From a virus, in IMG/VR virus record IMGVR_UViG_3300035117_000094, positions 1 to 64,000 of that record: a stretch of 64,000 nt of DNA; one strand, 5' to 3'. A model generated the notes under the pieces. That model was not told the DNA's origin, made no database searches, and saw only the letters and a list, made by a program, of their open reading frames with translations. Shown here piece after piece: positions 902-15,037 of the stretch (the stretch's first letter is position 1; each line of letters begins with the position of its first letter). The position numbers and the translations under genes are program-made.

Positions 902-1337
902 GGCCGCGCCTCACCTCGCAGTCATGCACGCACGGTAGCTAGCCGTCACGCTACGTTGAATAGCGTCGCGCGGCGCTGTAAGCCTCTGTGAGCTGCTTTC
1001 ACGCTGGCATTCAGCCCGAAACCGAGCCTGCCCCGTTAACGCGCTTCACAGTGCCCCGTAGCGCGCTACAGCCTAGGTTCCGTCCCGTACGCGCATGCGC
1101 GCGTGTCGCGTGCCCGTTCCGCCTCAGCTCGCATCTCGGCTGGCTAGTGTTCGGTAGTTCGAACATCACGCAGTCACGACAACTCACGCAAAGTAGTTTT
1201 TTCGCTCGATACAGCCCTTGACCTGCGCTTTCATCAGTGTGACCGGCGTCACATTTTCCCCGCCAACCCGCATGCGCGTTCGAATCACCCGGCCTGGCCT
1301 GCGTGTATACCCTTCACACAAGCCGTTTGACGCCGTT

Positions 1338-1365
1338 TTGATTATTCACAGCGTTGCCGTAGTGT
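1338..1365 (+). promoter_or_regulatory. Putative sigma-A/HrdB-type early promoter
   Basis: TTGATT-N16-TAGTGT directly before the structured region starting ~1373. Confidence 0.5.
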
Positions 1366-1372
1366 TCCTCTT

Positions 1373-1856
1373 GTCCGGCCAGCACGGCGGACACGGAGCA
1401 AGCGGAAGCTCTCCACGAGCCGGCCTAGAGTCTGCGCGCTACGCACGATTGGTAGAAGGCGGAAATTCGGGCCTGTATGCAAGCAAGCGGGATAGTGCCC
1501 CGTAGCTTGGCTCAAACGGGCACCAAACGCACGCTGCGCGATGACGTTGCTTGAATGGCCATATAGGCCGGCAATGAGCGGTAACCAGCAACCTAACGGC
1601 TAAGTGCGACCCCCGTTAAACAAGCTTTCGCAATGCCATGCTGCCTAGCAACCAGCGTGGTACCGCGTGAAATAACGCGCTGCGCATGCCATGCGTTCCA
1701 GCCGGTGAATACACCCGGCTCTCTCCGGTTACCGGTTCCGAGTCACTGACTCCCGTTAACCCAATGGTGAGGCTACCTACAGCCTCAATTCCTGTATGGC
1801 CCTGAATGCGCAGCGCGTGAAAGTCGCGCTTCACTACAATACGTTAGGAGTCGCAA
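1373..1856 (+). ncRNA. Candidate large structured RNA / 5' leader
   Basis: Nested long-range helices 1419-1427/1564-1572 (9 bp), 1480-1486/1547-1553, 1675-1687/1806-1818 (13 bp perfect), 1688-1694/1794-1800, plus many local hairpins; no credible ORF. Confidence 0.6.
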
Positions 1857-1916
1857 ATGTGCCCTGATTGTGACCGTACGCTAGTCAATGGTCAGTGTCC
1901 CGCTTGCGATCAATAG
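1857..1916 (+). CDS. 19-aa zinc-ribbon micro-peptide MCPDCDRTLVNGQCPACDQ
   Basis: AGGAG SD 6 nt upstream of ATG; two CxxC motifs; TAG followed by a type-B-like element, as for other early genes. Confidence 0.55.
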   Translation: MCPDCDRTLVNGQCPACDQ

Positions 1917-1965
1917 CAGTACCGCGCGCCACGGTGCCCGCAAGGGATAACCACGTAAGTCGCGC
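1914..1965 (+). repeat. Minimal type-B-like element (B0)
   Basis: TAG...CACGGTGCCC-GCAA-GGGA..CCACGT shares the CACGGTGCCC/GGGA base with B2/B3. Confidence 0.4.
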
Positions 1966-2249
1966 ATTCCTTTGGTTAGCGTCGTTTCTGCCCCCGATTG
2001 CAGCGGATTGGCCACGTCATCGCATGTTGGCTGCAATTCGCCTAAGCGGATAACGAAACGCCGCTTTCCATGGGAATTCAGTTCCCTGATAGCGTGATTG
2101 CACGCGCTAAATGATCCGCAAACCGGGAAAACGGTACGTCATGGGTAACGCTCCTGTTGCGCTATGCCCGCACTGCCGGCTACAGGTAACCGGACAATTC
2201 CGCGTGCAATCACCTATCATCCGTAGTATCAGCGTAAGGAACAACCACG

Positions 2250-2537
2250 ATGGCACTCCTGCTAGAGGCTGGCCAGACAATCGGCGCTATGATCGCGTTG
2301 TGCGTGCTGCCACTTGCCTACTCCCGGACTCGCCGAGTCACGTTCGCAGTCATGGCTTTTGCCAAGCGCCGCGCGCCACGGTGGCTAGTGCCCGTACTGG
2401 TGGCTTGCGCTTTCATCCCAGGTCCCCTAGACGAGCTGCTAGTCCTAGCAGCTGTTGCCTATCCGGTTCTCAAGTCGCAGGCTAACCGCGCGGAATTCAA
2501 GTCGTGCGTTAGCGGCGCTTGGAAGGGAAGCAAGTGA
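2250..2537 (+). CDS. Hypothetical membrane protein
   Basis: AAGGA SD; hydrophobic segments; FIPGPLDE motif. Confidence 0.7.
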   Translation: MALLLEAGQTIGAMIALCVLPLAYSRTRRVTFAVMAFAKRRAPRWLVPVLVACAFIPGPLDELLVLAAVAYPVLKSQANRAEFKSCVSGAWKGSK

Positions 2538-2953
2538 ACACGGAATTCGTCGCTCGCGAGCGTGCCCGCATGGCACGAGAAGCGGCTGGCATCATGCCCG
2601 CATCGCTCACGGCCACGATGGAAGGGCGCGGCATGAACCGCACTCCCCCTCACGTGGCTACTCCTCAGGTCGCAGGCGTAATGGCGACTCGTCACGATGT
2701 AGACTTCACTCCGCACTCTGGTCAGCGCATGCGCCGACGCGCGTCACAGCGCCACAAGGGGCACAAGTTCACGCGGTTCGGTGCCATCGGCGCGATACCG
2801 CGCGGCGTTGCCGACACGGCTACCTCTGGCCGTGCCCGCCGCGCGAGCGATGCCGATAGCGGCGCTAGCACGTACGGTAGCCTGCCGGCGTTGCCCCCCG
2901 CTGGCATGACTGACCTGTCAATGCGGTATGAGCCAAACGGGCGGAACCTGTAA
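2534..2953 (+). CDS. Hypothetical basic protein
   Basis: GTGA overlap with upstream stop. Confidence 0.55.
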   Translation: MNTEFVARERARMAREAAGIMPASLTATMEGRGMNRTPPHVATPQVAGVMATRHDVDFTPHSGQRMRRRASQRHKGHKFTRFGAIGAIPRGVADTATSGRARRASDADSGASTYGSLPALPPAGMTDLSMRYEPNGRNL

Positions 2954-2955
2954 CC

Positions 2956-3375
2956 ATGAGTCACTACGCGTACTCTCCCGTAGGGTACTCATTCAACGCT
3001 GATGACTACTGCCTAGACTGCATTCCGCAGGTAGCCGCGATAGCCGGTAAGGGCAACGGTGGTAACGGCAGTAAGCGCGGGGAATGCAACTGCGCGGAGT
3101 GCCGACTTGACCGCATGGCAGCGGCGCGCGGCATCAATCGCATGGATGAGCGCACCTTTGACAGTGGCGACTTTCCCAAGCACATTCCGTACCACAATGA
3201 CATTCACTCGGAATGCGGCCCTGATCACTATCAGGATGAGGATCACCCGTCTGAGTGGTCATGCTACGCGCGCTGCGGGAAATGCCACAAGGTTATCGAT
3301 GGCACGAGCAACTCGTCCGGTCCTGACACGTGCCCGTCAATGCCGGAGCCTGCCGAGACTGAGGACGACGATTAG
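2956..3375 (+). CDS. Cys-rich hypothetical protein
   Basis: Several CxxC motifs; ends at element B1. Confidence 0.75.
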   Translation: MSHYAYSPVGYSFNADDYCLDCIPQVAAIAGKGNGGNGSKRGECNCAECRLDRMAAARGINRMDERTFDSGDFPKHIPYHNDIHSECGPDHYQDEDHPSEWSCYARCGKCHKVIDGTSNSSGPDTCPSMPEPAETEDDD

Positions 3376-3458
3376 CACGCCGGCACATGGTGAGGCTGGC
3401 CAGGCGCAAGGGCGGAGCCTGCCCTTTTTGACCTGGCCAGCAACGCCACGCGCTTACG
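3373..3458 (+). repeat. Type-B element B1 (diverged)
   Basis: TAG..CGCCGGCAC.TGGTG-[GCTGGCCAGG/CCTGGCCAGC hairpin]-ACGCCACGCGCTTACG. Confidence 0.75.
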
Positions 3459-3501
3459 CGCTGGCAGCAACCGACAGAACGCAAGGGAAGGGATAGCAGT
3501 C

Positions 3502-4005
3502 ATGCCCCGTAGCGTAACGGCAGTGGCCGATATGGCTGGCATGTGGTGGGACGCCGGCGTAGTGGAGTACGTCGGGCGGTTTGACGCGTCCGAATTCGCG
3601 CGTCGCATGCTGACCAGCACAGCGCACGCCGCACTGTGGGCCGACTCCTCGCATGATGAGGACACGGACGGGAACGGGAAGTTCACGGAGGAGATAGACG
3701 ACTACGCTAACGGCTATGCGCCGGATTACGAGGACGCGCTTCCCGACGACGCGCGAGTCCAGCTGGAAACGGATGTTGACGACTTCATTCGCTCGGCATG
3801 GGTGTACCTCACGCTTGACAACATCACTCCGGAGCAAGCGGGACACGATTTCGAGTTGTCCCGTAACGGCCACGGTGCCGGATTCTGGGACCGTGGCTAC
3901 TCGCACGGGGACGAGCTGCATTCACTCGCCGAACCGTATGGCACGTTCGGCTTGGACGTGTCCGGCCACGGTGAGGACATGACCGTTTACGGATTCCACG
4001 GCTAG
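3502..4005 (+). CDS. Acidic conserved phage protein (GHDF..SRNGHGAGFWDR motif)
   Basis: Recognisable phage motif; D/E-rich. Confidence 0.8.
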   Translation: MPRSVTAVADMAGMWWDAGVVEYVGRFDASEFARRMLTSTAHAALWADSSHDEDTDGNGKFTEEIDDYANGYAPDYEDALPDDARVQLETDVDDFIRSAWVYLTLDNITPEQAGHDFELSRNGHGAGFWDRGYSHGDELHSLAEPYGTFGLDVSGHGEDMTVYGFHG

Positions 4006-4006
4006 C

Positions 4007-4114
4007 ATGAATGACCAGCAACGCCGGCAACTGCACTTCTGGGTAGCCGTGCTATCCGTAGCTTGCTTCGTGCTGGGATTCACCCTAGCCCTAGCGATAA
4101 TGACAATGCCGTGA
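4007..4114 (+). CDS. Small membrane protein (35 aa)
   Basis: Starts 1 nt after upstream stop; single hydrophobic helix. Confidence 0.5.
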   Translation: MNDQQRRQLHFWVAVLSVACFVLGFTLALAIMTMP

Positions 4115-4156
4115 GCGCACCAATCTACGCATACCAGAGCTAAGGACAATAAGCGC

Positions 4157-4336
4157 ATGCGCAAGCTTCTACTCCCTGTCATCCTGGTCACGCTATTGTC
4201 GGCCGGCATCGCCGCAGGCATGGCCGCAGCGCCATTCCTCCACTTCAACGGGGGTGACTGGTCAGCGGGCACTAACACGGCGTACTGCGGCGTGTACTGG
4301 CCGCGCGCTGATTTCTACTGCCAGCGCGCTGGCTGA
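4157..4336 (+). CDS. Small secreted protein (59 aa)
   Basis: AAGGA SD; signal-peptide-like MRKLLLPVILVTLL; ends at element A1. Confidence 0.6.
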   Translation: MRKLLLPVILVTLLSAGIAAGMAAAPFLHFNGGDWSAGTNTAYCGVYWPRADFYCQRAG

Positions 4337-4399
4337 CACGACTGCCCCGTTAACGGCGTGATGCCGCCCGATCGGATCGGGCACGGGGCGCGCAGGCAT
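4334..4399 (+). repeat. Type-A element A1 (diverged)
   Basis: GCCCCGT-TAAC-GGCGTGATGCC-GCCCGAT CGG ATCGGGC-ACGGGGC-GCGC. Confidence 0.9.
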
Positions 4400-4421
4400 C
4401 ACCTATAAGAGAGGCTCGGCA

Positions 4422-4820
4422 ATGGCAGTCATGACGTACGGTACCGATACCGGTTACCCTGCCGTGATAGACGAGGACACCAAGGCGGTTACGTTCCGAT
4501 GCGTAGCGCATCAGGTTGACCCTAGCGCATGCGCGTTGTGCGCTGCCACGGAACGTGAGGGTTTCCTGGGCAAGCACACCACGCACTATCCCGCTTACGT
4601 CAACTCCCGTGGCACGCTGGTTACCACGTTCGGGGGATTCGAGCTTGGCGTCATCATCAGGTACCGTACGGGACGCCGGCGCTGCACTCCTACGGGCGGG
4701 TACTACCGGCTGGAGTACGTGACCGTCCGGGACGCCCATGGCGGTATCTGGCACGGTGCGCACAACAGCGACGGCGGTAACCTCGTGCTGCTGCGCAAGT
4801 CACGGAAGGCGGCGAGGTAA
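4422..4820 (+). CDS. Hypothetical protein
   Basis: GAGAGG SD after A1. Confidence 0.75.
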   Translation: MAVMTYGTDTGYPAVIDEDTKAVTFRCVAHQVDPSACALCAATEREGFLGKHTTHYPAYVNSRGTLVTTFGGFELGVIIRYRTGRRRCTPTGGYYRLEYVTVRDAHGGIWHGAHNSDGGNLVLLRKSRKAAR

Positions 4821-5299
4821 TGCCCGCGACACTGACAGAGCATCCCGGCATCGTTGACCAGGGGACGCCTCACGAATTCTACAGTCCGTTCATCAAGTGG
4901 GAAGCCGAAAGCACGTCGGGCAGGTACGGGGAAGTGCAGCGACGCGGGCGGGCAGCGCAGATCAGCGCCGCAAAGCGCGCTTGGGTCAAGGCTCACCCGG
5001 GGCATTTCCTGTTCCTCTGTGATCGCAGCTACTCTGAGACCTGGGGTTTCCTTCACCAGTCAGCATTCCGTTACCGCGTCATCAGGTGCGACGCGATTAC
5101 CGGCGACGTGAGCAGCATGAATTGCTCGGATGACCTGCGCGTTGTCTGGTATGGCAAGGAGACTCCGGCGCTGGCATGCGGCTATCACGCGGGTAACTAC
5201 CCGTGCGCGGTCTACCGTGGCCATCACATCCGCGCGGCATACGAGGCTGAGCAGTACGCGAAGCTTAACGGCAAAATCTGGAAATGGCCCTACAAGTAG
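4820..5299 (+). CDS. Hypothetical protein
   Basis: TAATG coupling. Confidence 0.7.
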   Translation: MPATLTEHPGIVDQGTPHEFYSPFIKWEAESTSGRYGEVQRRGRAAQISAAKRAWVKAHPGHFLFLCDRSYSETWGFLHQSAFRYRVIRCDAITGDVSSMNCSDDLRVVWYGKETPALACGYHAGNYPCAVYRGHHIRAAYEAEQYAKLNGKIWKWPYK

Positions 5300-5311
5300 A
5301 GAGGTAATCGC

Positions 5312-5569
5312 GTGACCGGATTCGTTGGCGGTTACAGGGACATGGCCGGCATCACGAGCCGCGCTAACAGCGCACTGTGCCGGATTGAGTACATCCACGG
5401 CATGGGGCACCTTCCCCCCGCCGTGAGGCTTGCCCTGATCGCCGAGGTGATCGCGCATGAGCCGATCCTCACTGACACGTGCCCCGCCGCGTATACGGTG
5501 CGCGAGCTAGCGTGGCCTGCGCAAGGCAGCGCGCCGCGCGTCCACTGGGACGGCAGGCTAGGGCGGTGA
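5312..5569 (+). CDS. Hypothetical protein
   Basis: GAGAGG SD. Confidence 0.6.
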   Translation: MTGFVGGYRDMAGITSRANSALCRIEYIHGMGHLPPAVRLALIAEVIAHEPILTDTCPAAYTVRELAWPAQGSAPRVHWDGRLGR

Positions 5570-5847
5570 AGATAACCACGAACAACGTCCCGCGATTCAC
5601 CGTGGACAGTTGGGATCTAACGCCGGCGGAACGCGAGGAGTTCGATTACCTGGACTGGCCGGCGCTTGATGAGGGAACCGATAGCGCGACGTTCTTCCGC
5701 TACAAGGGCACCGTTTACGGCCTTGACCAGTTCATGCGCACGGGTCAAGAGGGATGGGAGGGGTACCTCGCATTCTCCTGGTCATGTGGCCTGCTTATCC
5801 GCCTGCCAGACGAGGACACGGTGGTTGTGGGGTTCTTCTCCGGCTAG
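5566..5847 (+). CDS. Conserved phage protein (TNNVPR..EFDYL..FFRYKG)
   Basis: GTGA overlap; recognisable phage motif; ends at B2. Confidence 0.8.
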   Translation: MKITTNNVPRFTVDSWDLTPAEREEFDYLDWPALDEGTDSATFFRYKGTVYGLDQFMRTGQEGWEGYLAFSWSCGLLIRLPDEDTVVVGFFSG

Positions 5848-5927
5848 CGCCGGCGCACGGTGCCCTTCCGCCTGGTCCTGGCCGGCGCTGGCCAAGACCA
5901 GGCGGAACGGGACGCCGCGTGCTTACG
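5841..5927 (+). repeat. Type-B element B2
   Basis: 87 bp identical to 7333-7419; long bulged hairpin TTCCGCCTGGTC/GACCAGGCGGAA. Confidence 0.95.
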
Positions 5928-5962
5928 CACGGCAATCCGATACGAGACGAGAGGAAAAGCAC

Positions 5963-6271
5963 GTGCCCGTTAAGGTACCATCGGCCGACCAGAGGGTTAC
6001 CGCGCAAGCTGCGGCTGAGTACTTCTGGCTAGTGGCCACGCGCGATGACCGCACCGTGAGCACTTACGACACGGCTTACTACATCACGGCCAAGCGCGCG
6101 TTCATCGTCGCTGTAAGGCAGGCATACGGCATCGGGGCACGACGGGCGGAACGGGTTTACGAGGCGCTTTCCGCCTACGGGCCATACGACACGCTTTCGG
6201 GCACCACGGGACGCGGCGTTGAGTCCTACGTGCAATTCGTCGTTAAGTACCCGCGAGAGAAGGTTTACTGA
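5963..6271 (+). CDS. Hypothetical protein
   Basis: GAGAGG SD before GTG, after B2. Confidence 0.7.
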   Translation: MPVKVPSADQRVTAQAAAEYFWLVATRDDRTVSTYDTAYYITAKRAFIVAVRQAYGIGARRAERVYEALSAYGPYDTLSGTTGRGVESYVQFVVKYPREKVY

Positions 6272-6669
6272 TGAGCGACGAAATGCGAGTTAGGTTCCCC
6301 GCCGGCGCGCGGGTACTGTGGACGGGCAGCAGTCCCCGCCCGTTCTCACAGAACGTGAACGCGCCGGCGAAGGTGCAAGGATGGCAGCGCGATTCCCTCA
6401 CTCGCGGCCACCTGGTCTTCTACGTGTCGCTAGACGGCGGCCCGAGCCACGCCACGGCGGGCGATTCCCAGCTGCGCTACCCGTGCCCGCAATGCGGGGA
6501 GCCGCTGGAATGGCGCGGCCCGTTTGACGGGCGGGCGGCGTCCACGGGAGTCACGGGCGGGCATGAGGGGTTCGGCGAAACGCTGATGTGCGACGCCGGC
6601 CACTGGCACGCGTTCATTCAGCTTGGCGTGATACCTCCCGAGCGCATCCTTACCGTGATCGACCTCTAG
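6271..6669 (+). CDS. Hypothetical protein with zinc-ribbon (CPQC..CxxxH)
   Basis: TGATG coupling; ends at A2. Confidence 0.7.
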   Translation: MSDEMRVRFPAGARVLWTGSSPRPFSQNVNAPAKVQGWQRDSLTRGHLVFYVSLDGGPSHATAGDSQLRYPCPQCGEPLEWRGPFDGRAASTGVTGGHEGFGETLMCDAGHWHAFIQLGVIPPERILTVIDL

Positions 6670-6731
6670 CACGGAGCCTCGTCAACGGCGTGATGCCGCC
6701 CTGTCGAACGGGGCACGAGGCGCGCAAGGAC
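6667..6731 (+). repeat. Type-A element A2
   Basis: GGAGCCTCGTCAACGGCGTGATGCCGCCCTGTCGAACGGGGCACGAGGCGCGCAAGG. Confidence 0.95.
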
Positions 6732-6757
6732 ACCAACCACGATCGAAGGGTAATTCA

Positions 6758-7339
6758 ATGGCTTGGAACGTTTACGCGATGCGCACGGCTAACCAGGGCA
6801 AGGGCGGTCACTGGTTTGATGCGGGCGCAATGCGCTTCTTCAATGGCCGCATCAGCGGGGAGGTTCACAGCGCGGGCAAGAATGCCGGCCAGTACTTCGT
6901 GTCATCCGAGCGGTACGACGACGACACGCCGCGCCTCTACTCAGTGCGCCGGTTCGATCCTGAGACGGCCGACGTGATGGATGCCCCGGGGCATCACTTC
7001 CAGGAGTACGCGTCATTGTCCGGCGCGCACGGCGCGGCCAAGCGCGCGGCGGCCAAGGAGGCGGCGACGGGATGGTGCAAGCGAGACGCCGACGCGCATT
7101 CCGGCCACCTGAGAGGGAGTGACAAGGCGTGCCCGAACTGCGGGACAATCGCGCTGGCCAAGACGGACGAGTGGATGATCACGGGCATCGCGTCCGATGG
7201 TAACCGGGCGCGGTTCGTCATCCACGACTCGCGCGAGTTCGCCGACGTGGCCGCGCACGCTGCGGAATCGGCTGCCCGCGTGTGGGGGGAAGGCTGCCTG
7301 ATAACTAACCTCACCATGCAAGAGGCAACACGCGGCTAG
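6758..7339 (+). CDS. Conserved phage protein (GHWFD..MRFF..YFVSSE..R.YSVR)
   Basis: Recognisable phage motif; bounded by A2 and B3. Confidence 0.8.
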   Translation: MAWNVYAMRTANQGKGGHWFDAGAMRFFNGRISGEVHSAGKNAGQYFVSSERYDDDTPRLYSVRRFDPETADVMDAPGHHFQEYASLSGAHGAAKRAAAKEAATGWCKRDADAHSGHLRGSDKACPNCGTIALAKTDEWMITGIASDGNRARFVIHDSREFADVAAHAAESAARVWGEGCLITNLTMQEATRG

Positions 7340-7419
7340 CGCCGGCGCACGGTGCCCTTCCGCCTGGTCCTGGCCGGCGCTGGCCAAGACCAGGCGGAAC
7401 GGGACGCCGCGTGCTTACG
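7333..7419 (+). repeat. Type-B element B3
   Basis: Identical to 5841-5927. Confidence 0.95.
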
Positions 7420-7460
7420 TGAATAGCACGAAACCTGCCCACATCACGAGAGGTACGACG

Positions 7461-7634
7461 ATGGACCTTGACACGCGCGCCACTGCTCCCGGTTTCTACG
7501 TGGAATCGCTGGAGGGTAACGAGTGGCTGACATTCAAGGCCGGCACGCGGAAGCGCGCCAAGCGCGCGGCCAGCCGGCGACTCCGCCACACGACGCGGGC
7601 CAAGCTCCGCCGCGCGGATTACAGCGACTTCTAG
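7461..7634 (+). CDS. Small basic hypothetical protein
   Basis: GAGAGG SD; bounded by B3 and A3. Confidence 0.6.
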   Translation: MDLDTRATAPGFYVESLEGNEWLTFKAGTRKRAKRAASRRLRHTTRAKLRRADYSDF

Positions 7635-7698
7635 CACGAGGAGCCTCGTTAACGGCGTGATGCCGCCCTGTCGAACGGGGCACGAGGCGCGCAAGGCA
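7632..7698 (+). repeat. Type-A element A3
   Basis: Near-identical to A2. Confidence 0.95.
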
Positions 7699-7726
7699 CC
7701 CCACCACATGAGAGGCATAACCAGTC

Positions 7727-8242
7727 ATGGGACACAAGCCACTGCCCGCGCACCGAGACGACCTGTTTTACCGTCACACGGTGCTGCCCGCCGCGCGCCG
7801 CATCGCGGCCAGCATCATCGACGACGCGCGGGCCAGCACCACGCCCGTCGCGTGGGTCACGGGCAATTCCTACATGCCGCCGGCGCGGTCGTTCACCGAA
7901 TTCGAGATGGTCTGGCAGCACCGCCTTAACGAGAGCACGCCGGAACGCCCGTACGCCGGCGGCCAGATGTCAGAGGCGATGTGGGAGGAGATCGAGCGAA
8001 TCCTCACTGAGGCGGACGTGTACACGGCGTGCCCCGACTACGATAACTCCATCTACGCGGTTGACTCCCGCCGCTGGGAGTACATCGGAGAAGACAACCC
8101 CGCGTTTGACGAGTTCGACATGAACGGGGAGTACCTGCCCGTGGTGCGCGCCGGCGTGACGTGCCCCGAGTGCGGTAAGTCGCACAAGGCAGGATCGGCA
8201 ACGCTGGCCAAGTGCGCCACGGCGCGCGGGCTGCCGGCGTGA
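7727..8242 (+). CDS. Hypothetical protein, C-terminal CPEC..H..C
   Basis: GAGAGG SD after A3. Confidence 0.75.
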   Translation: MGHKPLPAHRDDLFYRHTVLPAARRIAASIIDDARASTTPVAWVTGNSYMPPARSFTEFEMVWQHRLNESTPERPYAGGQMSEAMWEEIERILTEADVYTACPDYDNSIYAVDSRRWEYIGEDNPAFDEFDMNGEYLPVVRAGVTCPECGKSHKAGSATLAKCATARGLPA

Positions 8243-8400
8243 CCGGGGAGCCTGCCCCGCTGACCGATACGCGGGAGGCGCTGGCCGCCATGTGCGAGGA
8301 CGAAACTTACGCGCCATGGCTAGCACGGCAGGAGGCGAACAGCCGGCCCGTGGGAATGGTGCGGTTCGCCGATGATCCTGCCAAGGATTACCAGGTATGA
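8239..8400 (+). CDS. Small hypothetical protein
   Basis: GTGA overlap; ends at A4. Confidence 0.55.
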   Translation: MTGEPAPLTDTREALAAMCEDETYAPWLARQEANSRPVGMVRFADDPAKDYQV

Positions 8401-8403
8401 GAA

Positions 8404-8462
8404 GGAGCCTCGTCAACGGCGTGATGCCGCCCTGCCGAACGGGGCACGAGGCGCGCAAGGAC
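8404..8462 (+). repeat. Type-A element A4
   Basis: One substitution vs A2. Confidence 0.95.
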
Positions 8463-8488
8463 ACAGTCACGCACGAAGGGAAAGCACG

Positions 8489-8974
8489 ATGCGCAAGCCG
8501 CTGAAGGACACGAACAAGACCTACGCCACGCTTAACGCACTGCTCGGCAGCCTGCCAGAATTCCGTCCCGCCCCTGTTCGCTCGGATGTTGCCGGCGTTA
8601 TCCTCGCCTGCTGGGAGGCGGGCCTGATCACCACGGACGAGCTTGCGTGGGAAGTGCTGCGCATAGTGGAGCACGACGTTGCCGATGGCTTCGTGCCGTG
8701 GGACGTGTCGTGCTTCGGGCAGCTCCACGATTTCGTGGACGCCAACATGTACACGGACGAGCTGATCGGGCTTGCGGAGCCGGACGACGAGGACGACGAA
8801 CGGCACATCGCCATTCACAACGCCGTGACCAGCCGCGTTAACGAGCTGCTTACGGGAAGCAAGGAGACGCCGGCGTACTACGCGGACGGCTTCCCGTGGC
8901 AGGAGATGCAGGAGCGCGGCAAGTCACGCGATACCGACATGGCCGTGTACCTGGTCAGCATGGGCAGGCGATAG
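8489..8974 (+). CDS. Acidic hypothetical protein (LHDFVDAN motif)
   Basis: GAAGGG SD after A4. Confidence 0.75.
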   Translation: MRKPLKDTNKTYATLNALLGSLPEFRPAPVRSDVAGVILACWEAGLITTDELAWEVLRIVEHDVADGFVPWDVSCFGQLHDFVDANMYTDELIGLAEPDDEDDERHIAIHNAVTSRVNELLTGSKETPAYYADGFPWQEMQERGKSRDTDMAVYLVSMGRR

Positions 8975-8977
8975 GAG

Positions 8978-9583
8978 ATGACGATCATGACAGCGCCGGT
9001 TACGTACACGTTCGACGTGGTAACCGTCACCACGATCCGCGTTACGGTCAGCGGCGGCGAGGAGGCAGCGCGGGCAGCCATCGCCGGCCTGGAATCCCTC
9101 GACATCGACGCCGTGATCACGGGCACGGAAGGCGGCGCGGAAGACGCGAGCTACAGCCCGACGTGCATAAGCCCGCGCGGGAAGGCAGCGCTCGTGCATG
9201 CTACGGGAGCACACGGCGAGGACATGCCCGTGGAAGAGGACGAGGGACTCGCCGAGCCGCTGTTCAGCACGGGCGAGGCACGGGAACTGATCACGGACGG
9301 CTGCGACGACCACGGCGGCGAGGAGGCAGCGCGAGACGCGCCGGATACGCCCCTCACCGTGTACGTTGTCACAGAGGGCGCTGATATCGAGTGCTGCGAG
9401 CACCACGGCGCGTTCAGCACGCCGGAGAAGGCAACAGGGTACGTGAACGCCAGCGCTAAAGGCGGCGCGCACTGGTACGCTAACCCGTTCCACGCGCGGT
9501 CTAGGCACGGCGGATCGGAATGGACGATCGTCCCGATGATCCTTGACGAGCTAACACCGAACACCCACCAGGAGGCATCGTGA
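8978..9583 (+). CDS. Acidic hypothetical protein
   Basis: Packed ORF; internal 21-bp direct repeat (9052, 9313). Confidence 0.65.
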   Translation: MTIMTAPVTYTFDVVTVTTIRVTVSGGEEAARAAIAGLESLDIDAVITGTEGGAEDASYSPTCISPRGKAALVHATGAHGEDMPVEEDEGLAEPLFSTGEARELITDGCDDHGGEEAARDAPDTPLTVYVVTEGADIECCEHHGAFSTPEKATGYVNASAKGGAHWYANPFHARSRHGGSEWTIVPMILDELTPNTHQEAS

Positions 9584-9957
9584 CCGAAGAGGCACAGTTC
9601 ACCGAAGAGGAGATCGCGGCGGCCATACCGCAACTGCCCGACTGGCAGCGCTACGATAACGCGGCGGTCCTGTACACGCGCGGACCGGTAAGCGCGGTCG
9701 TGCTGGCCGCGTTCGCCGAGCTGGCCAGCGCGATCAGCAACAGCACCGATGGCGGCGCGAGCGTTGCCACGGAGTACGGGCAGCTAGCCGCGCGTGTGGC
9801 CAAGCCGGCGGCGGACGTGCGAGAGTGGGCGCTACGGCACCTTCGCCAGCAGGCGGAGAAGGCAACGGCCGACAAGCACATTCTTGCGTGTGAGAACGCG
9901 GAGAGGGCAGCAGCCGTTGCCGATGCCGAGCGCTTGCTCAGGCCGGCCGCCACCTAG
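9580..9957 (+). CDS. Hypothetical protein
   Basis: AGGAGG SD, GTGA overlap; ends at A5. Confidence 0.7.
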   Translation: MTEEAQFTEEEIAAAIPQLPDWQRYDNAAVLYTRGPVSAVVLAAFAELASAISNSTDGGASVATEYGQLAARVAKPAADVREWALRHLRQQAEKATADKHILACENAERAAAVADAERLLRPAAT

Positions 9958-10022
9958 CACGAGGAGCCTCGTCAACGGCGTGATGCCGCCCCGTCGAACG
10001 GGGCACGAGGCGCGCAAGGACA
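9955..10022 (+). repeat. Type-A element A5
   Basis: T->C converts a G.U pair of P2 to G-C. Confidence 0.95.
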
Positions 10023-10045
10023 TAACCGCGAGCGAAGGGCACGAC

Positions 10046-10489
10046 ATGACCAATCCCGCAGACGACATCGCCAACGCGGACATCAGGCGAGCGCGCACGG
10101 CGCTGGCCGTCATGTCCGCGCCGGCCGGCCAGCTCGGCACGGACGCGCACGACACGCTGCTCCGTAACGCTGCGGAGATCCGCAGGTTCCTGGACCGGCT
10201 GGAAGGCCAGCGGCTAGCCGAGCGGCGACGGCAAGGAGACTTCACCCCCGAACTGGTCACGCTGGAGGCGCAAGCCGGCGAGCTGCGCGCCCTGTCCTCC
10301 GAGCTGGGTAACGTCGCATTCGAGGTGACCGCGCAGCGCTCGGGCATGTCGCGCAACGGCCACGACGCGAGCGACGCGATGCAAGTGCAGGAGTACGGGC
10401 GCACGGTCGAACTGCTCATCGGCAAGCTGACCGTGGTGCGCGATACGCTCAGCGCGCTCGGGTCAGCGTTCGGCGAGCCTGCCGCATGA
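10046..10489 (+). CDS. Hypothetical helical protein
   Basis: GAAGGG SD after A5. Confidence 0.7.
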   Translation: MTNPADDIANADIRRARTALAVMSAPAGQLGTDAHDTLLRNAAEIRRFLDRLEGQRLAERRRQGDFTPELVTLEAQAGELRALSSELGNVAFEVTAQRSGMSRNGHDASDAMQVQEYGRTVELLIGKLTVVRDTLSALGSAFGEPAA

Positions 10490-10764
10490 GGCTCGGCAAC
10501 GGGCGGCCGGCGGGACCGCGCATGCTGGCCGCCTGGAGGTACGTGCAAGAGCACCCAGGCTGCCCGATCCTGCCCGTTGCGGAGGCGGTCGGCCCGCACG
10601 GCTCACGGAAGTTCGGCTACCGCAGCGTTCACAGGGCGATCAGCGCCGGCCTGATCATGGCGGCGAGAGACTCGCGCGGGCGGTACAGCCTCACGGCCGA
10701 AGAGGTGACCGTGCACCCGAGCGTCACCCGCACCCCGTTCAGCAACTACGTTCAGAGACGATAG
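10486..10764 (+). CDS. Possible winged-helix protein
   Basis: ATGA overlap; wHTH-like pattern. Confidence 0.55.
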   Translation: MRLGNGRPAGPRMLAAWRYVQEHPGCPILPVAEAVGPHGSRKFGYRSVHRAISAGLIMAARDSRGRYSLTAEEVTVHPSVTRTPFSNYVQRR

Positions 10765-10776
10765 GGGAGGCACCCC

Positions 10777-10980
10777 GTGAAGGTCTCGCGAATCAAGCCG
10801 TACGGCGACGAGTACGACCGTCACGGGATAGTCATCGCTCGTCAGTACCTGTGCTGGATGGCCGATCAGACGGTACTTACCGTGCACGTGCCGGCCACCT
10901 ATCGCGGGCGCGAGAAGAGTCGCGCGGCACGAGCGCTGGCCGTGGCCAAGTGGAAAGAACAGCAGAGGAGAAACCCGTGA
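10777..10980 (+). CDS. Hypothetical protein
   Basis: GGGAGG SD. Confidence 0.6.
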   Translation: MKVSRIKPYGDEYDRHGIVIARQYLCWMADQTVLTVHVPATYRGREKSRAARALAVAKWKEQQRRNP

Positions 10981-11468
10981 AACTGCATACCGTCCTTTAC
11001 ACCCAGGACATCCGCAACGCGCTCCAGCGCGCTAAGGCCGCTGGCCGCGTGACCGCTGACGTGGAGCTTGTCCAGCTCAAGCCCGAGGGATCGCGTACGC
11101 ACCCGTACGGGTACCTCGTGCAGCTAGGCACCTTCGACCAGGACAGCCTGCCGGCGGGCACGACCGACCAGCACGGGCGGCGCATGAACGTCCGCAGGTA
11201 CAAGAACAGCGGCGACTCCGGCGCGGCGTCGGAGTACTACGGGCGCGACGGCGCGGTATGGGCGGCCACGTACCACGAGTGGGGATGGTTTATCGCGGAG
11301 CTGTTCGCCGCCGACCCGACCGCCTCGACCAGTGCCTCGTACGGGCGCTACAAGAGCGCTGAGGACTTCCGCGAGCAGACGAACGGCGCGTACGAGCTGC
11401 CCGTTCCCGCTGAGCCGCGCCACTGGCACCCCAACATGCACGGGGACTACACGGGCGGCATCCGCTAG
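10977..11468 (+). CDS. Conserved phage protein (AATYHEWGWF)
   Basis: GAGGAG SD, GTGA overlap; ends at A6. Confidence 0.75.
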   Translation: MKLHTVLYTQDIRNALQRAKAAGRVTADVELVQLKPEGSRTHPYGYLVQLGTFDQDSLPAGTTDQHGRRMNVRRYKNSGDSGAASEYYGRDGAVWAATYHEWGWFIAELFAADPTASTSASYGRYKSAEDFREQTNGAYELPVPAEPRHWHPNMHGDYTGGIR

Positions 11469-11533
11469 CACACGGAGCCTCGTCAACGGCGTGATGCCGC
11501 CCTGTCGAACGGGGCACGAGGCGCGCAAGGACA
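11466..11533 (+). repeat. Type-A element A6
   Basis: Core identical to A2. Confidence 0.95.
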
Positions 11534-11557
11534 CGACCACGAGCGAAGGACACGCGC

Positions 11558-11788
11558 ATGAAGTACGTCATCAGCGAGAAGACCGCTGACCTGATGAAAG
11601 ACCTGTTCGAGCAGCTAATCAACGAGGCCGATCACCTGGTTAGCCATCCGAGCGCAGAGGGCCAGTTCTTCGACACCACGTCGGGGGGCGCGTGCTCGCG
11701 CGAGGATATCGCGGGCATCCGCGACGACATGAGGGCCGCGCTCGGCGAACTGGACCGTCAGCGCGGTGCCGTGATCATCAACACCTAG
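11558..11788 (+). CDS. Hypothetical protein
   Basis: GAAGGA SD after A6. Confidence 0.7.
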   Translation: MKYVISEKTADLMKDLFEQLINEADHLVSHPSAEGQFFDTTSGGACSREDIAGIRDDMRAALGELDRQRGAVIINT

Positions 11789-11806
11789 GGAAAGGCACCT
11801 GCTACC

Positions 11807-12031
11807 GTGACAACCATGTACGAGCCTAAGGTCAACCAGCCGCGCCGTGTCACGCACGAGCTAGCCGGCGAGGAAACAGACATCGTGCCCGAGCTAACGG
11901 GCTTCTTCGAGCGGCCGGCATACGCCACGCTGGCCGACATCACGACGGCGCTCGTGGAGGAGACCGACCCTCACGAGCTGCACCGCCTTCAGGGCCTGCT
12001 GGACAGCGTGCGGGCAGGGGAGATCGGATGA
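11807..12031 (+). CDS. Hypothetical protein
   Basis: Packed ORF with SD. Confidence 0.6.
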   Translation: MTTMYEPKVNQPRRVTHELAGEETDIVPELTGFFERPAYATLADITTALVEETDPHELHRLQGLLDSVRAGEIG

Positions 12032-12423
12032 CCGGCAGCGGCGTAACGAGGCAGCCTGAAAACGAGCCTGAGGACGCCGAAGCCGGCAAGGAGCTGCTTG
12101 ACCTGATCGTGAAGATGGTGCCCCCCGTGCTGTGGGAGAAGGTGCCCGCTAACAAGGACACGTCCGTCCTGATCGCCCGTGAGGGCGCGTGGGAGGCACC
12201 CGAGCCGGCGGCGGCCATCCGTGCCGTCATGCGCGCGGGCAGCGACGCGAACTTCGCCGGCATGGGAGACGACGAGGTGAGGGCACTCCGCCTCGTGGCC
12301 TTCGACTTCCTCCGGGTAGCCGATGAGGAGCTGTTCTACCGCAGGACAGTCGCGCCCGCCATGCGGGCCATAGCCCAGGCGAGCACGCTCATCCTGCGTG
12401 ACGCCGGGGAAGGAGGCAGCTGA
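12028..12423 (+). CDS. Hypothetical protein
   Basis: ATGA overlap. Confidence 0.65.
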   Translation: MTGSGVTRQPENEPEDAEAGKELLDLIVKMVPPVLWEKVPANKDTSVLIAREGAWEAPEPAAAIRAVMRAGSDANFAGMGDDEVRALRLVAFDFLRVADEELFYRRTVAPAMRAIAQASTLILRDAGEGGS

Positions 12424-13310
12424 TGCAGAGGCTCCGGGTACTGCTGGCCTGCGAGTGCAGCGGGCGAGTGCGAGACGAGTTCGCCAAGCGCGGGTGGGAG
12501 GCCGTCTCGGCGGACATCCTGCCGAGCGAGACGCCCGTGGACCGCAGCATGGTCTCAACGCTGATCCACGGGCAGGGAAGCGCGGGGCAAGGACCGGAAG
12601 AGTTCCACTCACCTGTTGAGACAGGGACAGGCGGCTGGCAGCGCTGGGACGCGGGCGGCTCAACGGCGCACTACCGGGGCGACGTGCGAGACCTTTTCAG
12701 CTGGGATCACCCGGTGAACAGGTCTCGTATCCAGCCGGGCAAGCCCGTTAACGAGCAGCTTCCCCCGTGGGATCTCGTCATCGCGTTCCCGCCGTGCACC
12801 CGGCTGTCGTACGCGGGCAACCGCTGGCGGAAGGAGTGGCAGGCCAACGGCGAGGAGGACGCGGGCGCGGCGTTCTTCATGGACATGATCAGCGCGCCGT
12901 CGCCGCTAGTCGCGGTCGAGAACCCGCGCGGCGTGATGTTCCAGCGCTACCGCAAGCCTGATCAGGCGATCCAGCCCTGGTGGTTCGGTGATCCGTTCCG
13001 GAAGACCACGTGCCTGTGGCTGAAGGGGCTGCCCCCGCTGGTGCCGGAGCTTACTGAGCCGGAAGTTCTGGCGACCGTCAGCTCCGGCGACCTGGCCGGC
13101 TACCGGCTGCACCGTGCCGCGACGGGCGGGGGGTCGCACCGCACCGACGCGGGCGCGGAGCACCCTGCCCACGACTTCGGCGGCCGGAAGCACTACGAGG
13201 ACAGCGAGGGGCGCGTGAACCGGGCGAAGGTCCGGTCCCGCACGTTCCCCGGCGTCGCCCGTGCCATGGCCGCCCAGTGGGGCGCGTTCGCGGAGAAGTA
13301 CCACAGCTAG
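12423..13310 (+). CDS. Putative DNA cytosine methyltransferase (phage type)
   Basis: RVLLACECSG motif-I variant, FPPCT catalytic motif IV, ENP motif VI, RSRTFPG C-terminus. Confidence 0.8.
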   Translation: MQRLRVLLACECSGRVRDEFAKRGWEAVSADILPSETPVDRSMVSTLIHGQGSAGQGPEEFHSPVETGTGGWQRWDAGGSTAHYRGDVRDLFSWDHPVNRSRIQPGKPVNEQLPPWDLVIAFPPCTRLSYAGNRWRKEWQANGEEDAGAAFFMDMISAPSPLVAVENPRGVMFQRYRKPDQAIQPWWFGDPFRKTTCLWLKGLPPLVPELTEPEVLATVSSGDLAGYRLHRAATGGGSHRTDAGAEHPAHDFGGRKHYEDSEGRVNRAKVRSRTFPGVARAMAAQWGAFAEKYHS

Positions 13311-13372
13311 GCAACCCGCCCCCGTAACCGCGTGACGCCGGCGATCGGATCGCCACGGGGGCACGCACGCCA
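13308..13372 (+). repeat. Type-A element A7 (most diverged)
   Basis: GCCCCCGT-AAC-CGCGTGACGCC-GGCGAT CGG ATCGCC-ACGGGGGC-ACGC. Confidence 0.8.
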
Positions 13373-13400
13373 CACCCAGACCGCTAGGAAAGGCACTCTC

Positions 13401-13814
13401 ATGTCAAAGGGCATCTTCGACCTGTCCGCCGAGGACATCATGTACTCGCGTGACGTGGACGCGCGCATCGCCGGGCTTGAGCAGGAGATCACTGCGCTGC
13501 TAACCCCGGACCCGGGCGACGGCAGCCCCGAGATAGACGAGGCCGCCGAGCTGGACGCCGAGCTTACCGAGCTGAAGGAGTTCCGCGACACCGTGACTCG
13601 CAGCCCGGCCGGGGACGGCTGGGACAGGGATCGCGGCATGTCCTTCATCAACGTCCGCTACTGGGACCAGTACGCGAGTGAGCAGGCCGGCGAGATCTAC
13701 GGCGAGGCTACGAGCACTGAGTTCTGGGACGGCGGGAAGTGGTCGGCCCGCCTTCAGCGGGACTTCGCCGAGGTCAGGCTGAACGGCGACGTGTTCCTGT
13801 ACGACGGCAGGTAG
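13401..13814 (+). CDS. Acidic ArdA-like antirestriction protein (putative)
   Basis: D/E-rich; C-terminal WD..KW.ARL..DF..V.LNG..FLY resembles the ArdA C-terminal pattern. Confidence 0.55.
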   Translation: MSKGIFDLSAEDIMYSRDVDARIAGLEQEITALLTPDPGDGSPEIDEAAELDAELTELKEFRDTVTRSPAGDGWDRDRGMSFINVRYWDQYASEQAGEIYGEATSTEFWDGGKWSARLQRDFAEVRLNGDVFLYDGR

Positions 13815-13817
13815 CCG

Positions 13818-13843
13818 GGAATACTCGCGACCGTTCACCGGTT
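13818..13843 (+). promoter_or_regulatory. ECF-type promoter GGAAT-N18-GTT
   Basis: Exact match, intergenic. Confidence 0.85.
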
Positions 13844-13873
13844 ACACAATGCGAGCGATGAGAGGAGACACGC

Positions 13874-15037
13874 ATGCAGACTCGCGAGCTAACACCGCTA
13901 GACTACGCACGGGCCTTCGCCGGCCGGCTGGTCTACGCGACCCCCGAGCAGCTTGACGCGCTTACCCTGCTGGTCACGGTCAGCCACGTCATCAACTGCT
14001 TCACGACCGTGCCGCGCGGGCTGGCGGTCAGCGACGAGCCGGGGTCAGGCAAGTCCACGGTCCTTCACTTCGCGCGGATGCTGGGCTGGCGGGCCTGGTC
14101 GGGCACTAACGCCACGGAGCCGGCGATCAAGGCCAAGTTCATCGAGGGCGAGTGCACGCTCATCGTGGACGAGATATCCAAGCTGTTCGGCGAGTCCGGC
14201 ATGAACGGCAAGAACAGCAAGCTCTACCAGCTTCTCGTGTCCGGGTACGAGTCCGGGGCGACTACGGCGTTCAGCGCCGGGCGCGTCACGGAGGACGTTC
14301 CGATCTACGGGGTGGCCGTCGCCGCCGGGCTGCGCAAGGCAGCACCGGACGACCTGCGGTCCCGGTCGGTTATCTGGCAGATGAAGCCAGCGCCGCCGGC
14401 CGTGGCGGAGGCGCTTGAGGACGCGCTGGACCCGAGCACCCGGGCTTACGGCCTGGACCTGGGCAAGGCGCTGCACAAGTGGGCGCGGTCCAGCGCCGAG
14501 GAGATGCGCGAGTTCGCCAAGAACGGGCTTCGCGGGCTGCACCCCAAGCTGAACGGGCGGCGGCGGCAGGTGTGGGGTCCGCTGTTCGCGGTCGCGCACG
14601 TGGCTGGCAGCGACTGGCCGGCGCGGTGCCTGCGGGCGTTCCTCGACCTCGCGCTTGACTCCGGCGAGCGGCCGGTCCTCGTGCCCGAGGAGCAGGTTCT
14701 CCTGGACGCTGCGGACTTCACCGGGCAGCACGGCACCGAGGAAGGCTGGATTACGTCCCGCGACCTGCTGACGTGGCTGAAGGGCACCGAGCGCGAGCTG
14801 TACTGGCCGATGTCGGACCGGGCGCTGGGCAAGCTGATGACGGCGACGCTGGGAGCGACGCGAGCGGAGCGCTGCTCGTTCGTGTACCCGCAGCCGGAGG
14901 ACGAGGGCAAGGTACCCGTGCACAAGGGGTGGTTCATGGCGGAGCACCTGCTTCACGCCGCCGACCTCCGCGCCCAGCTTAACCTCGTGCTCCACGAGAA
15001 GCAGGAACCCGACGACATCGACATGATGTTCGAATAG
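13874..15037 (+). CDS. P-loop ATPase (DUF3631-like)
   Basis: Walker A EPGSGKST, Walker B LIVDE, RSRS arginine finger. Confidence 0.8.
   Translation: MQTRELTPLDYARAFAGRLVYATPEQLDALTLLVTVSHVINCFTTVPRGLAVSDEPGSGKSTVLHFARMLGWRAWSGTNATEPAIKAKFIEGECTLIVDEISKLFGESGMNGKNSKLYQLLVSGYESGATTAFSAGRVTEDVPIYGVAVAAGLRKAAPDDLRSRSVIWQMKPAPPAVAEALEDALDPSTRAYGLDLGKALHKWARSSAEEMREFAKNGLRGLHPKLNGRRRQVWGPLFAVAHVAGSDWPARCLRAFLDLALDSGERPVLVPEEQVLLDAADFTGQHGTEEGWITSRDLLTWLKGTERELYWPMSDRALGKLMTATLGATRAERCSFVYPQPEDEGKVPVHKGWFMAEHLLHAADLRAQLNLVLHEKQEPDDIDMMFE

Follow-up and report, generated by a model that had tools for sequence, protein, structure and literature searches.

Other phages, including those of actinophage clusters M and K and of the T4 and T7 types, have repeated structured joints between their early genes, and the array described here is a variant of these. 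In cluster M, CR3/CR4 repeats with upstream stem-loops are described (Pope et al. 2014, as summarised in PMC7953290). A gap in the right arm of the cluster M phage Bongo (JN699628) contains a stop codon; an SD-like CACGGAG(GAG); a very stable 14–16 bp hairpin whose sequence varies; a conserved, A/C-rich RBS repeat; and an ATG (PMC7953290). In cluster K, the one-orientation SAS/ESAS repeats are confined to non-structural genes and lie just upstream of starts; the upstream stop is sometimes within the repeat, and ESAS adds a 17-bp inverted repeat (PMC3203893). The PeSL of T4 are short conserved stem-loop modules between small non-essential early genes, providing homology for indels and swaps (PMC2839356, PMC4122927). 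They were the model behind the cassette idea of the initial annotation of the DNA studied here. The T7 early polycistron of ~7 kb is cut at five RNase III sites (PMC4858673).

The 64-kb window analysed in this study is the left part of a 103.6-kb virus record (103,588 bp), which is 88% complete. The terminase was ~30% identical to known actinophages, and relatives at 54–64% identity were detected. The source virus is a new high-GC phage, a distant actinophage. Searches of IMG/VR, JGI metagenomes, GTDB genomes, and GenBank phages found no relative carrying the elements.

The window and Bongo have the same anatomy: a stem-loop, a conserved RBS-region repeat, and small non-structural genes in one orientation. 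In both, many such genes, of unknown function, are located at a genome end with gaps of 80–100 nt. The flank motifs in the window, TAGCACGAGGAG.. and ..CACGAGCGAAGGG, resemble those of Bongo, with the short motifs CACGGAG.. and ..GAAGGG visible in both; this comparison was with the Bongo sequence itself. The structures are different. Cluster M has a simple hairpin of variable sequence, while the window has a three-way junction with a conserved core, and a second class (B) alternates with the first (A), unlike in cluster M. The covariance model of the A elements had no match in Bongo, and the two kinds of phage are only distantly related.

Layout of the early region and its joints

A putative early transcription unit of ~29 small genes in 11 groups was placed at 1857..13814 (+ strand) by ORF and GC3 calls and a gap table. 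Every gene in 1857–13814 is on the + strand, and genes within each group are tightly packed or overlapping. The ~12-kb block is split into these groups by ten repeated folded intergenic elements. All gaps of at least 85 nt in 1857–13874 contained a repeat element, and the remaining gaps were at most 59 nt. The initial annotation had claimed eleven element positions, comprising 10–11 structured repeats, each bounding 1–4 unrelated small genes. All eleven elements were found where described. Ten of them (A1–A7 and B1–B3) are structured, but the eleventh, B0, is an unstructured relic (z +0.7). The cassettes consist of 1–4 genes without paralogy among them. These genes are almost all ORFans, and the early proteins showed no informative domains.

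The joints have a constant order: stop codon; 3–8 nt; structure; a 32–42 nt A-rich, T-poor spacer with an SD; and start codon. The first helix pair follows the stop codon by 6–8 nt in A and ~3–4 nt in B, and the start codon lies 32–38 nt and 36–42 nt, respectively, beyond the end of the structure. Two earlier descriptions, that the elements begin at or near a stop codon (usually TAG) and that all except B0 are followed by a spacer and SD, were confirmed. A stop codon adjoins every element, and TAG was used at 9 of the 11 joints versus 6 of 18 element-free gene ends (Fisher p = 0.02). The spacers are A-rich and T-poor with a purine-rich SD at the end. The gene after B3, for example, probably starts at ATG 7458, behind a GAGAGG SD. 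A test of RBS opening showed no difference between native and core-shuffled sequences. The results supported that the joints are in-register units of stop codon, structure, SD, and start codon bounding unrelated genes. The cluster K 13-bp SAS GGGATAGGAGCCC, located 3–7 bp before starts, gave 27 matches versus 29.5 expected with at most three mismatches, and none was at a joint.

Structures of the A and B elements

A1–A7 form one family with a 46-nt core folding as a three-way junction. All copies are on the + strand, and none was found elsewhere in the record by the covariance-model scan. The five central joints are A2 (6667..6757, core 6676–6721), with 101 bits; A3 (7632..7726, core 7643–7688), with 94 bits; A4 (8398..8488, core 8407–8452), which has a TGA stop and one mismatch in the loop-closing pair, with 97 bits; A5 (9955..10045, core 9966–10011), with 99 bits; and A6 (11466..11557, core 11477–11522), with 104 bits. 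A1 (4334..4421, core 4344–4389) consists of a TGA stop, junction, spacer, and SD, scored 85 bits, and is a diverged subtype shared with A7. A7 (13308..13400, core 13318–13365) is the most diverged (66 bits) and keeps the three helices via compensatory changes. The next best score in the 103,588-bp record was 17 bits for B0. A centre-to-edge gradient of identity had been proposed. The cores of A2–A6 do differ by no more than 1–2 nt, and A1 and A7 are diverged, but the gradient is only two end outliers, which resemble each other.

The pairing of the A junction was examined in the alignment, where 97.5% of cells were paired and six pairs had double compensatory changes, the covariation being among effectively three sequence types. 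None of 500 shuffles matched the native pairing, register-shifted controls decreased to 36–54% paired, and RNAalifold independently recovered the same fold. Owing to U-G wobbles, the + strand folded better than the − strand in four of the seven copies. In 100-nt context, the predicted folds of the A elements were no more stable than those of GC-rich shuffles (z +0.35 to −1.3). It is the covariation that upheld the earlier view of the A elements as structured joints. Since the stem sequences of A1/A7 and A2–A6 differ within one genome, the selected feature appears to be base pairing and not a DNA palindrome read by protein. The arms of ESAS, by comparison, are non-covarying according to the authors (PMC3203893).

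The single-stranded A bases are invariant, including in A1 and A7: the junction AAC, GCGUGA in hairpin 1, CG in the second loop, and CGCA in the tail. Such constancy while the stems covary would fit RNA operators for a specific phage or host protein, such as a translational repressor or nuclease shutting off all early groups at once on the change to middle genes, or a factor in antitermination. The two structural classes could then mean two regulatory groups. GGAG is present at the 5′ edge of A2–A6, and T4 RegB cuts GGAG in early mRNAs. However, no candidate binding protein was identified, the early proteins lack informative domains, and recent common origin could explain the sequence conservation equally well. 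A role as RNA operators is considered quite unlikely.

The Rfam covariance search gave no match to the A elements at E up to 5, with no ribozyme, tRNA-like, or riboswitch family, and ARAGORN found no tRNA at the elements. These results bear on two further ideas: that the elements are miniature mobile elements of a selfish kind, or that they are decoy RNAs (tRNA-like or CRISPR-repeat-like) that come off the transcript and titrate a host factor. The elements have a high copy number, are nearly identical, and are restricted to one lineage; the 7-bp closing stem, together with a coaxial hairpin, bears a loose likeness to the acceptor/T arm of tRNA; and the genome has odd tRNA-like genes. Against this, no known family was recognised by either program, no transposase or terminal inverted repeats with adjacent target duplications were found, and stem covariation counts against mimicry of one fixed sequence. 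A selfish or decoy nature is highly improbable.

The B elements are long hairpins on the + strand. B1 (3373..3468) has ~34 pairs (z −4.5), with a base common to B2 and B3 and a different apical part. B2 (5841..5927) has ~33 pairs starting from the TAG stop (z −5.5, −59.4 kcal/mol), and B3 (7333..7419) is an identical copy (87/87; z −7.1). The hairpins of B1–B3, ~31–34 bp in length, all folded far better than shuffles, and the long stem is kept in B1 and B2 despite the differing apical sequence. Two basal motifs are common to the three elements and have exactly three occurrences in the genome. Rfam gave only weak minus-strand mraW matches on B2/B3 (24–28 bits, versus a gathering score of 50). 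B0 (1914..1990, +) has a 10-nt CACGGTGCCC in common with B and a GCAAGG..AACCACG piece in common with the A spacer. It had no stable fold compared with shuffled sequence (z +0.69), and no SD or start follows it. Having only fragments in common and no better fold than shuffled sequence, B0 is regarded as a degenerate relic and not a family member.

Transcription and proposed processing of the early genes

A candidate early promoter of the host sigma-A type, TTGATT-N16-TAGTGT, was read upstream of the array at 1337..1365 (+), and the promoter scan predicted a second promoter-like site at 2191–2220. The sigma-70 promoter scan gave 2 sites in 15 kb versus 2.8 expected, none of them in any element. 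The early unit contains no internal sigma-70-like site beyond chance and no GGAAT-N18-GTT site. The latter promoter (SigH/SigR-type) occurs 12 times in the window versus 0.39 expected. The first, at 13818..13843 (+), has none to its left and marks the array end, where middle genes begin, as the initial annotation had stated. The U-tract terminator scan found none at any element. Since neither kind of site was detected at an element and the next promoter class follows right after the array, a single long transcription unit is likely.

The same scans argue against the elements acting in transcription, either as attenuating terminators grading expression or as PeSL-like promoter-terminators, possibly with an ECF-type AAC-N16/17-GTC promoter in A. 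Stable GC-rich structures directly after stop codons, the tip of B1, where what looks like a small hairpin precedes a T-run, and a sigma factor encoded by the phage fit such a role, as does the AAC, 16 nt, GTC pattern of A2–A6, which is loosely ECF-like. However, A1 and A7 carry ATC instead of GTC, and transcription starting within the element would be incompatible with the covariation-supported junction. A, B2, and B3 have no U-tract, and mycobacterial RNA polymerase requires a U-tract for intrinsic termination. This explanation is very unlikely. T4 PeSL have a strong sigma-70 promoter and a working terminator. The scans detected neither here; stable stem-loops are present, but among the structured elements only B1 has a T-run, after its tip.

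The reading given a modest preference, as somewhat more likely than not, is that the A and B elements act in cis as RNA structures, punctuating one long early transcript through processing, stability, and independent translation starts, with recombination as a by-product. Every large intergenic gap is occupied by a copy, the copies are all on the coding strand, and their distances to stop and start codons are fixed. In a distant relative (L024), two covarying double-hairpin joints were located between small early genes. The long transcript would be made by the host RNA polymerase from the left-end promoter or promoters. Host endonucleases would first cut this polycistron at the joints. RNase III could cut the long B duplexes, and RNase E could cut the spacers. 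The mycobacterial RNase E acts on single-stranded C-rich intergenic RNA just 5′ of C, its preferred position, and its cuts are enriched in intergenic regions and 5′ UTRs (PMC10641625, PMC6448022). The structure at the new 3′ end would then shield the upstream segment from 3′ exonucleases, while the downstream segment would retain an open leader for independent translation initiation. Recombination between copies may remove, duplicate, or exchange gene groups while leaving expression intact.

We infer co-transcription, cleavage, and stabilisation of the early groups from the sequence, and it is plausible that, as first proposed, the individual mRNA units are processed or stabilised through the joints. 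Duplexes of the RNase III type, intercistronic and of at least ~20 bp, were found in B1–B3 (33–34 predicted pairs) but not in A, whose stacked helices (7 + 7 bp) are short for this enzyme. The record contains no RNase III gene. Other points also count against RNA punctuation: the A elements in 100-nt context fold no better than shuffles, the test of RBS opening showed no effect of the core, the near-perfect identity of A2–A6 and B2/B3 exceeds what structure alone needs, and the invariant junction AAC, loop GUGA, and loop CG of A fit specific protein recognition as well as simple stabilisation. T7 is similar in that the host polymerase makes a long early polycistron from the left end of the genome, and structured sites between cistrons divide it into mono- and dicistronic mRNAs. 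Irregular hairpins form the T7 sites, whereas those in the window are near-identical repeats; cleavage is proven in T7, whereas the duplexes here are predicted and the A junction departs from the usual RNase III substrates. Two structural classes, a covariation-backed junction, fixed stop and start distances, and a sharp promoter-class boundary make the array an unusually clean case. For high-GC hosts, the joint module could be used as a natural insulator part between cistrons.

Possible recombination between copies

Homologies of 55–87 bp had been proposed to serve gene exchange, and direct repeats of 56–87 bp in a single orientation were found. Homologous recombination and gene conversion are expected between near-identical direct repeats of this length. 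As the joints are in-register units with TAG inside the repeat, any A-A or B-B crossover would keep a working joint. The perfect match between B2 and B3 and the close similarity among A2–A6 point to recent duplication or gene conversion. B2 and B3 flank a 1.4-kb three-gene segment, which fits an integrated circle carrying one B, or recent conversion.

These features would suit recombination as the primary selected role, in which portable homology blocks gain, lose, and shuffle early genes, possibly via circles, in an integrase-free capture array, as the initial annotation had it. The cassette genes are mutually unrelated and nearly all ORFans, the terminal copies are degenerate, and DUF7447, a domain in one cassette, is scattered among Streptomyces and Bacillus phages. 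Precedents are the indels and mini-circles mediated by PeSL (PMC2839356, PMC4122927) and the CR3 copies brought along by gene insertions in cluster M phages (PMC7953290). However, the compensatory changes indicate that pairing is under selection, and homology for recombination would not require pairing. A methyltransferase-like homologue in the 115-kb relative G001 is in a compact operon without a joint, and GC3 climbs smoothly along the array and is not patchy. Recombination is unlikely to be the primary role. PeSL recombination is backed by comparative and physical evidence (PMC2839356, PMC4122927), while the present array is known from sequence alone.

The array had also been called integron-like, and this was not supported. 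Searches of the 103.6-kb record (88% complete) with PF00589 and PF00239 gave no match to a tyrosine or serine recombinase, while the controls were detected. Inspection of the aligned copies showed that the attC ends RYYYAAC/GTTRRRY are absent: the 5′ side reads CGTCAAC within the element, and a GTT core is missing from the 3′ side. With neither an IntI nor an attC core pair found in the record, membership among integrons was not supported. Integron arrays have promoterless one-orientation units behind a common promoter; the genes here likewise have one orientation, with no promoter-like site at the joints, and may share a promoter upstream. Both kinds of array have folded sites that keep structure more than sequence. 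Unlike in integrons, the joints here carry an SD and stop codon, and the structure is read on the coding strand.

A tentative possibility is that the joints are dual: as RNA, they would cut and stabilise the early transcript, and as DNA, they would form an integrase-free cassette array. Groups of host-takeover or anti-defence genes between A or B copies could then leave as circles, be lost or duplicated, or be acquired from a co-infecting relative by homologous recombination, each time landing in an expression-ready slot, and the identical B2/B3 would mark the most recent capture as its scar. A role of the joints in gene exchange, if real, would help to account for the fast turnover of phage early regions, where anti-defence genes gather.

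Early block and its transcription context

The virus record is linear, 103,588 bp long and approximately 88% complete, and the window covers its left 64,000 bases. GC content is 58% at the left end and climbs to about 70%. The genes are arranged in blocks on the + strand (1.8–22.5 kb), the − strand (23–37 kb), the + strand (37.5–60 kb) and again the − strand (61–103 kb, virion genes). The virus is actinophage-like and deeply diverged, judging by its proteins, because its terminase shared about 30–33% identity with those of Rhodococcus, Arthrobacter and Mycobacterium phages, and its primase-like protein about 24% with Gordonia phage counterparts. Megablast of the array found no nucleotide-level relative among GenBank phages. 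Besides a sigma factor, the phage encodes a Ku-like end-binding protein (19182–20006), a nucleotidyltransferase (42705–43562) and an RNA ligase (52082–52771), all three in the middle region. An RNase III gene was not found in the record, nor was a T7-type RNA polymerase; the latter is a weak negative, as the control genomes of that search gave no signal either. Several tRNA or tRNA-like genes were present, and the ARAGORN call at 60579–60651 has a 4-base anticodon.

The pattern GGAAT-N18-GTT, which we take to be of the SigH/SigR type, occurred 12 times in the window (0.39 expected) between 13818 and 60886, with 11 sites on the + strand ahead of genes. The first site, at 13818, lies 4 nt past the last early gene and none is found further left, which bears out the claim of the initial annotation that the array stops at these promoters. 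No sigma-70-like promoter or U-tract terminator coincided with an element, and their counts in 15 kb were at or below chance. Candidate promoter-like sites were located upstream at about 1337–1365 (read from the sequence) and at 2191–2220 (scan). The array and its early genes (1857–13814) thus take up a single promoter-free block from the left-end promoters to the first middle promoter, an arrangement typical of a long early polycistron. Downstream of one GGAAT-N18-GTT site, at 55421–56044, lies the gene for a phage sigma-70 region-2 protein.

Positions 182–504 of the left non-coding end (1–1856) are occupied by two arrays: first 5.2 copies of a 45-bp tandem repeat with 96% matches, then a looser array with a 22-bp unit. 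They may be repeats of a terminal or packaging-related kind, or sites of protein binding. Composition drifts along 1–16000: starting from the left end, GC has gone from 58% to 70% and gene GC3 from about 0.75 to about 0.90 by the point where the early region ends, gradually and not stepwise per cassette.

Structure of the A and B elements

The seven A elements (A1–A7) lie at 4.3–13.4 kb, all on the + strand, and could be aligned across about 90 nt. The covariance model built from them scored each copy at 66–104 bits; the next best match in the whole record was B0, at 17 bits. The 46-nt core is a three-way junction. Its closing stem has 7 bp and leads into four unpaired bases, the last three being AAC; next come a hairpin of 3–4 bp that carries the loop GUGAU and another of 7 bp, with a loop of 3 nt, which is stacked directly on the closing stem. 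In this fold 97.5% of cells were paired and six pairs showed double compensatory changes, which was matched by none of 500 shuffles. Shifting the partners by 1–3 columns lowered pairing to 36–54%, and RNAalifold recovered the identical fold unprompted. One stem version is common to A1 and A7 and another to A2–A6, so the covariation, though clean, comes from about three sequence types that are independent of each other. Folding in a 100-nt context, with z-scores from +0.35 to −1.3, gave the A elements no advantage over shuffled GC-rich sequence. The A junction matched no Rfam family at a permissive threshold. Hammerhead or other ribozyme and tRNA-like identities were rejected, since the junction has none of their conserved cores and neither Rfam nor ARAGORN recognised it as one of them.

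The B elements are long hairpins. B2 and B3 are identical at 87 of 87 positions; their fold has about 33 pairs and −59 kcal/mol, with z-scores of −5.5 for B2 and −7.1 for B3. B1 retains the basal 14- and 16-nt motifs of B2 and B3, for which the genome has exactly three occurrences; its apical stem is of equal length and unlike theirs in sequence (z −4.5). On the minus strand, 5841–5930 and 7330–7425 gave weak Rfam matches to the actinobacterial mraW RNA motif (24–28 bits, against a gathering score of 50), probably a mere likeness among long GC-rich hairpins.

All eleven positions agreed with those of the initial annotation, which had counted 10–11 structured repeats. Ten of these are sound; B0 (1914–1990) is a relic, so the array consists of ten elements and one remnant. 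The likeness of B0 to the B elements is limited to CACGGTGCCC, and it also has a piece of spacer resembling that of A. B0 showed no fold (z +0.7), and neither an SD nor a start codon follows it. A 19-codon ORF at 1857–1916, preceded by a good SD, codes for a mini-protein of the form CxxC...CxxC; its stop codon is the TAG of B0, after which 333 nt are non-coding.

Joint anatomy and the proposed RNA-level role

The start codon lay 32–38 nt beyond the structure in A elements and 36–42 nt beyond it in B elements. The stop codon was TAG at nine of eleven joints, versus 6 of 18 element-free gene ends (p = 0.02). TAGCAC(G) is common to A and B copies, and the stop codon is therefore part of the repeat. 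The spacers contain 28–39% A and 0–14% T and end in GAAGG or GAGAGG; A2–A6 carry an additional GGAG or AGGAG between stop and stem. A MITE reading, in which two SD-like flanks would be a target-site duplication, was rejected, as about 20 nt separate the downstream flank from the structure. Between 1857 and 13874, every gap of at least 85 nt contained an element, the remaining gaps were at most 59 nt, and many genes overlapped by 1–4 nt.

The elements bound eleven groups of 1–4 genes without paralogy, in line with the 1–4 unrelated small genes per element of the initial annotation; the repeats are therefore not remnants of tandem gene duplication. Nearly all array gene products lacked a Pfam or named PHROG match. 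The exceptions were a methyltransferase-like protein, encoded at the right end, and a DUF7447 protein; the DUF7447 domain has a scattered occurrence in phages of Streptomyces and Bacillus. Candidate gene pairs at 5312–5847 and 10777–11468 overlap in different frames by 91 and 130 nt, which could be due to mis-called starts, spurious ORFs or frameshift sites. The proteins at 7727–8242 and 12028–12423, otherwise unrelated, share a 27-residue stretch with 52% identity (E = 0.002–0.003 within a small set).

Compensatory changes among copies within one genome indicate that selection acts on base pairing. Both A stem versions could not be within reach of a single DNA-binding protein. Further features point to mRNA as the site of action: the elements are biased to one strand, their stop and start distances are fixed, and U-G wobbles make the minus-strand fold weaker in four A copies. 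Taken with the selection on pairing, these features led us to read the joints as RNA punctuation. The interpretation in the initial annotation is thus supported in part, as far as structured expression joints are concerned.

The stable structures would mark the ends of transcript segments, and an open leader rich in A and C, bearing an SD of its own, would come after each. By analogy with host biology, RNase III may act on the B duplexes, the spacers may be cut by RNase E, and the structure may serve as a 3′ shield. RNase III cleaves the early transcript of T7 at five sites (PMC4858673). In mycobacteria, RNase E cuts single-stranded C-rich RNA just 5′ of C, with enrichment in intergenic regions and 5′ UTRs (PMC10641625, PMC6448022). 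A cis role of the joints at the RNA level in general is somewhat favoured; confidence in the exact nucleases is clearly less. The predicted accessibility of the ribosome-binding site was 0.50 for both native and core-shuffled sequences, and a simple insulator effect was unsupported. The invariant unpaired bases of the junction could be bound by a specific protein.

Recombination and comparison with known systems

The initial annotation also proposed integron-like gene capture. Integron membership fails, since no recombinase (integrase) was found in the 103.6 kb of this record and the elements lack attC core sites. The joints do have what recombination would need. They are direct repeats of 56–87 bp in a single orientation, kept in register so that any crossover retains stop, SD and start. 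The genes they flank are mutually unrelated, the perfectly identical B2 and B3 enclose a 1.4-kb three-gene segment, and the terminal copies are degenerate. The near-identity of A2–A6 and the identity of B2 and B3 exceed folding needs, which suggests conversion or recent spread. However, in a 115-kb distant relative the one shared gene lies in a compact operon without joints. Exact scans of IMG/VR, JGI metagenomes and 185,579 species genomes with the A core gave only single chance matches (all ≤21 bits by the model), several of them inside coding sequence. Searches for kin through the DUF3631, primase-like and methyltransferase-like proteins returned distant records only (37–48% identity), none with A or B; by protein search, Logan/JGI contigs of 11–46 kb hold relatives whose DUF3631 protein is at 54–64% identity. 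Recombination as the selected role is considered improbable, and recombination between copies is likely a by-product. A dual use of the joints, for RNA punctuation and cassette exchange together, is doubtful.

The nearest anatomical match to the joints was the right arm of cluster M mycobacteriophages. Six gaps of 80–100 nt between small leftward genes of Bongo (JN699628) were folded. Five of them showed a stop codon, CACGGAG(GAG), a perfect 14–16 bp stem (z −3.7 to −5.7), ACACACGGAGAAGGGA, about 8 nt and ATG. These intergenic repeats are described as CR3/CR4 with stem-loops upstream, and gene insertions accompanied by a CR3 copy have been noted (PMC7953290). Cluster K phages carry SAS/ESAS repeats in a similar position without covariation (PMC3203893), whereas the SAS motif was not enriched in this phage. 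The PeSLs of T4 are a model of repeat-mediated shuffling, yet they are promoter-terminator units (PMC2839356, PMC4122927). New here are the three-way junction motif, which has no Rfam family, the alternation of two classes and the high regularity of the module.

A distantly related IMG/VR contig (L024, 73.7 kb) has two successive intergenic joints at its positions 7037–7380, each with a GC-rich hairpin and then a 20-bp hairpin. Its GGAGG SD lies within the 3′ arm of the 20-bp hairpin, 5–6 nt before ATG, and the two joint copies differ through compensatory changes.
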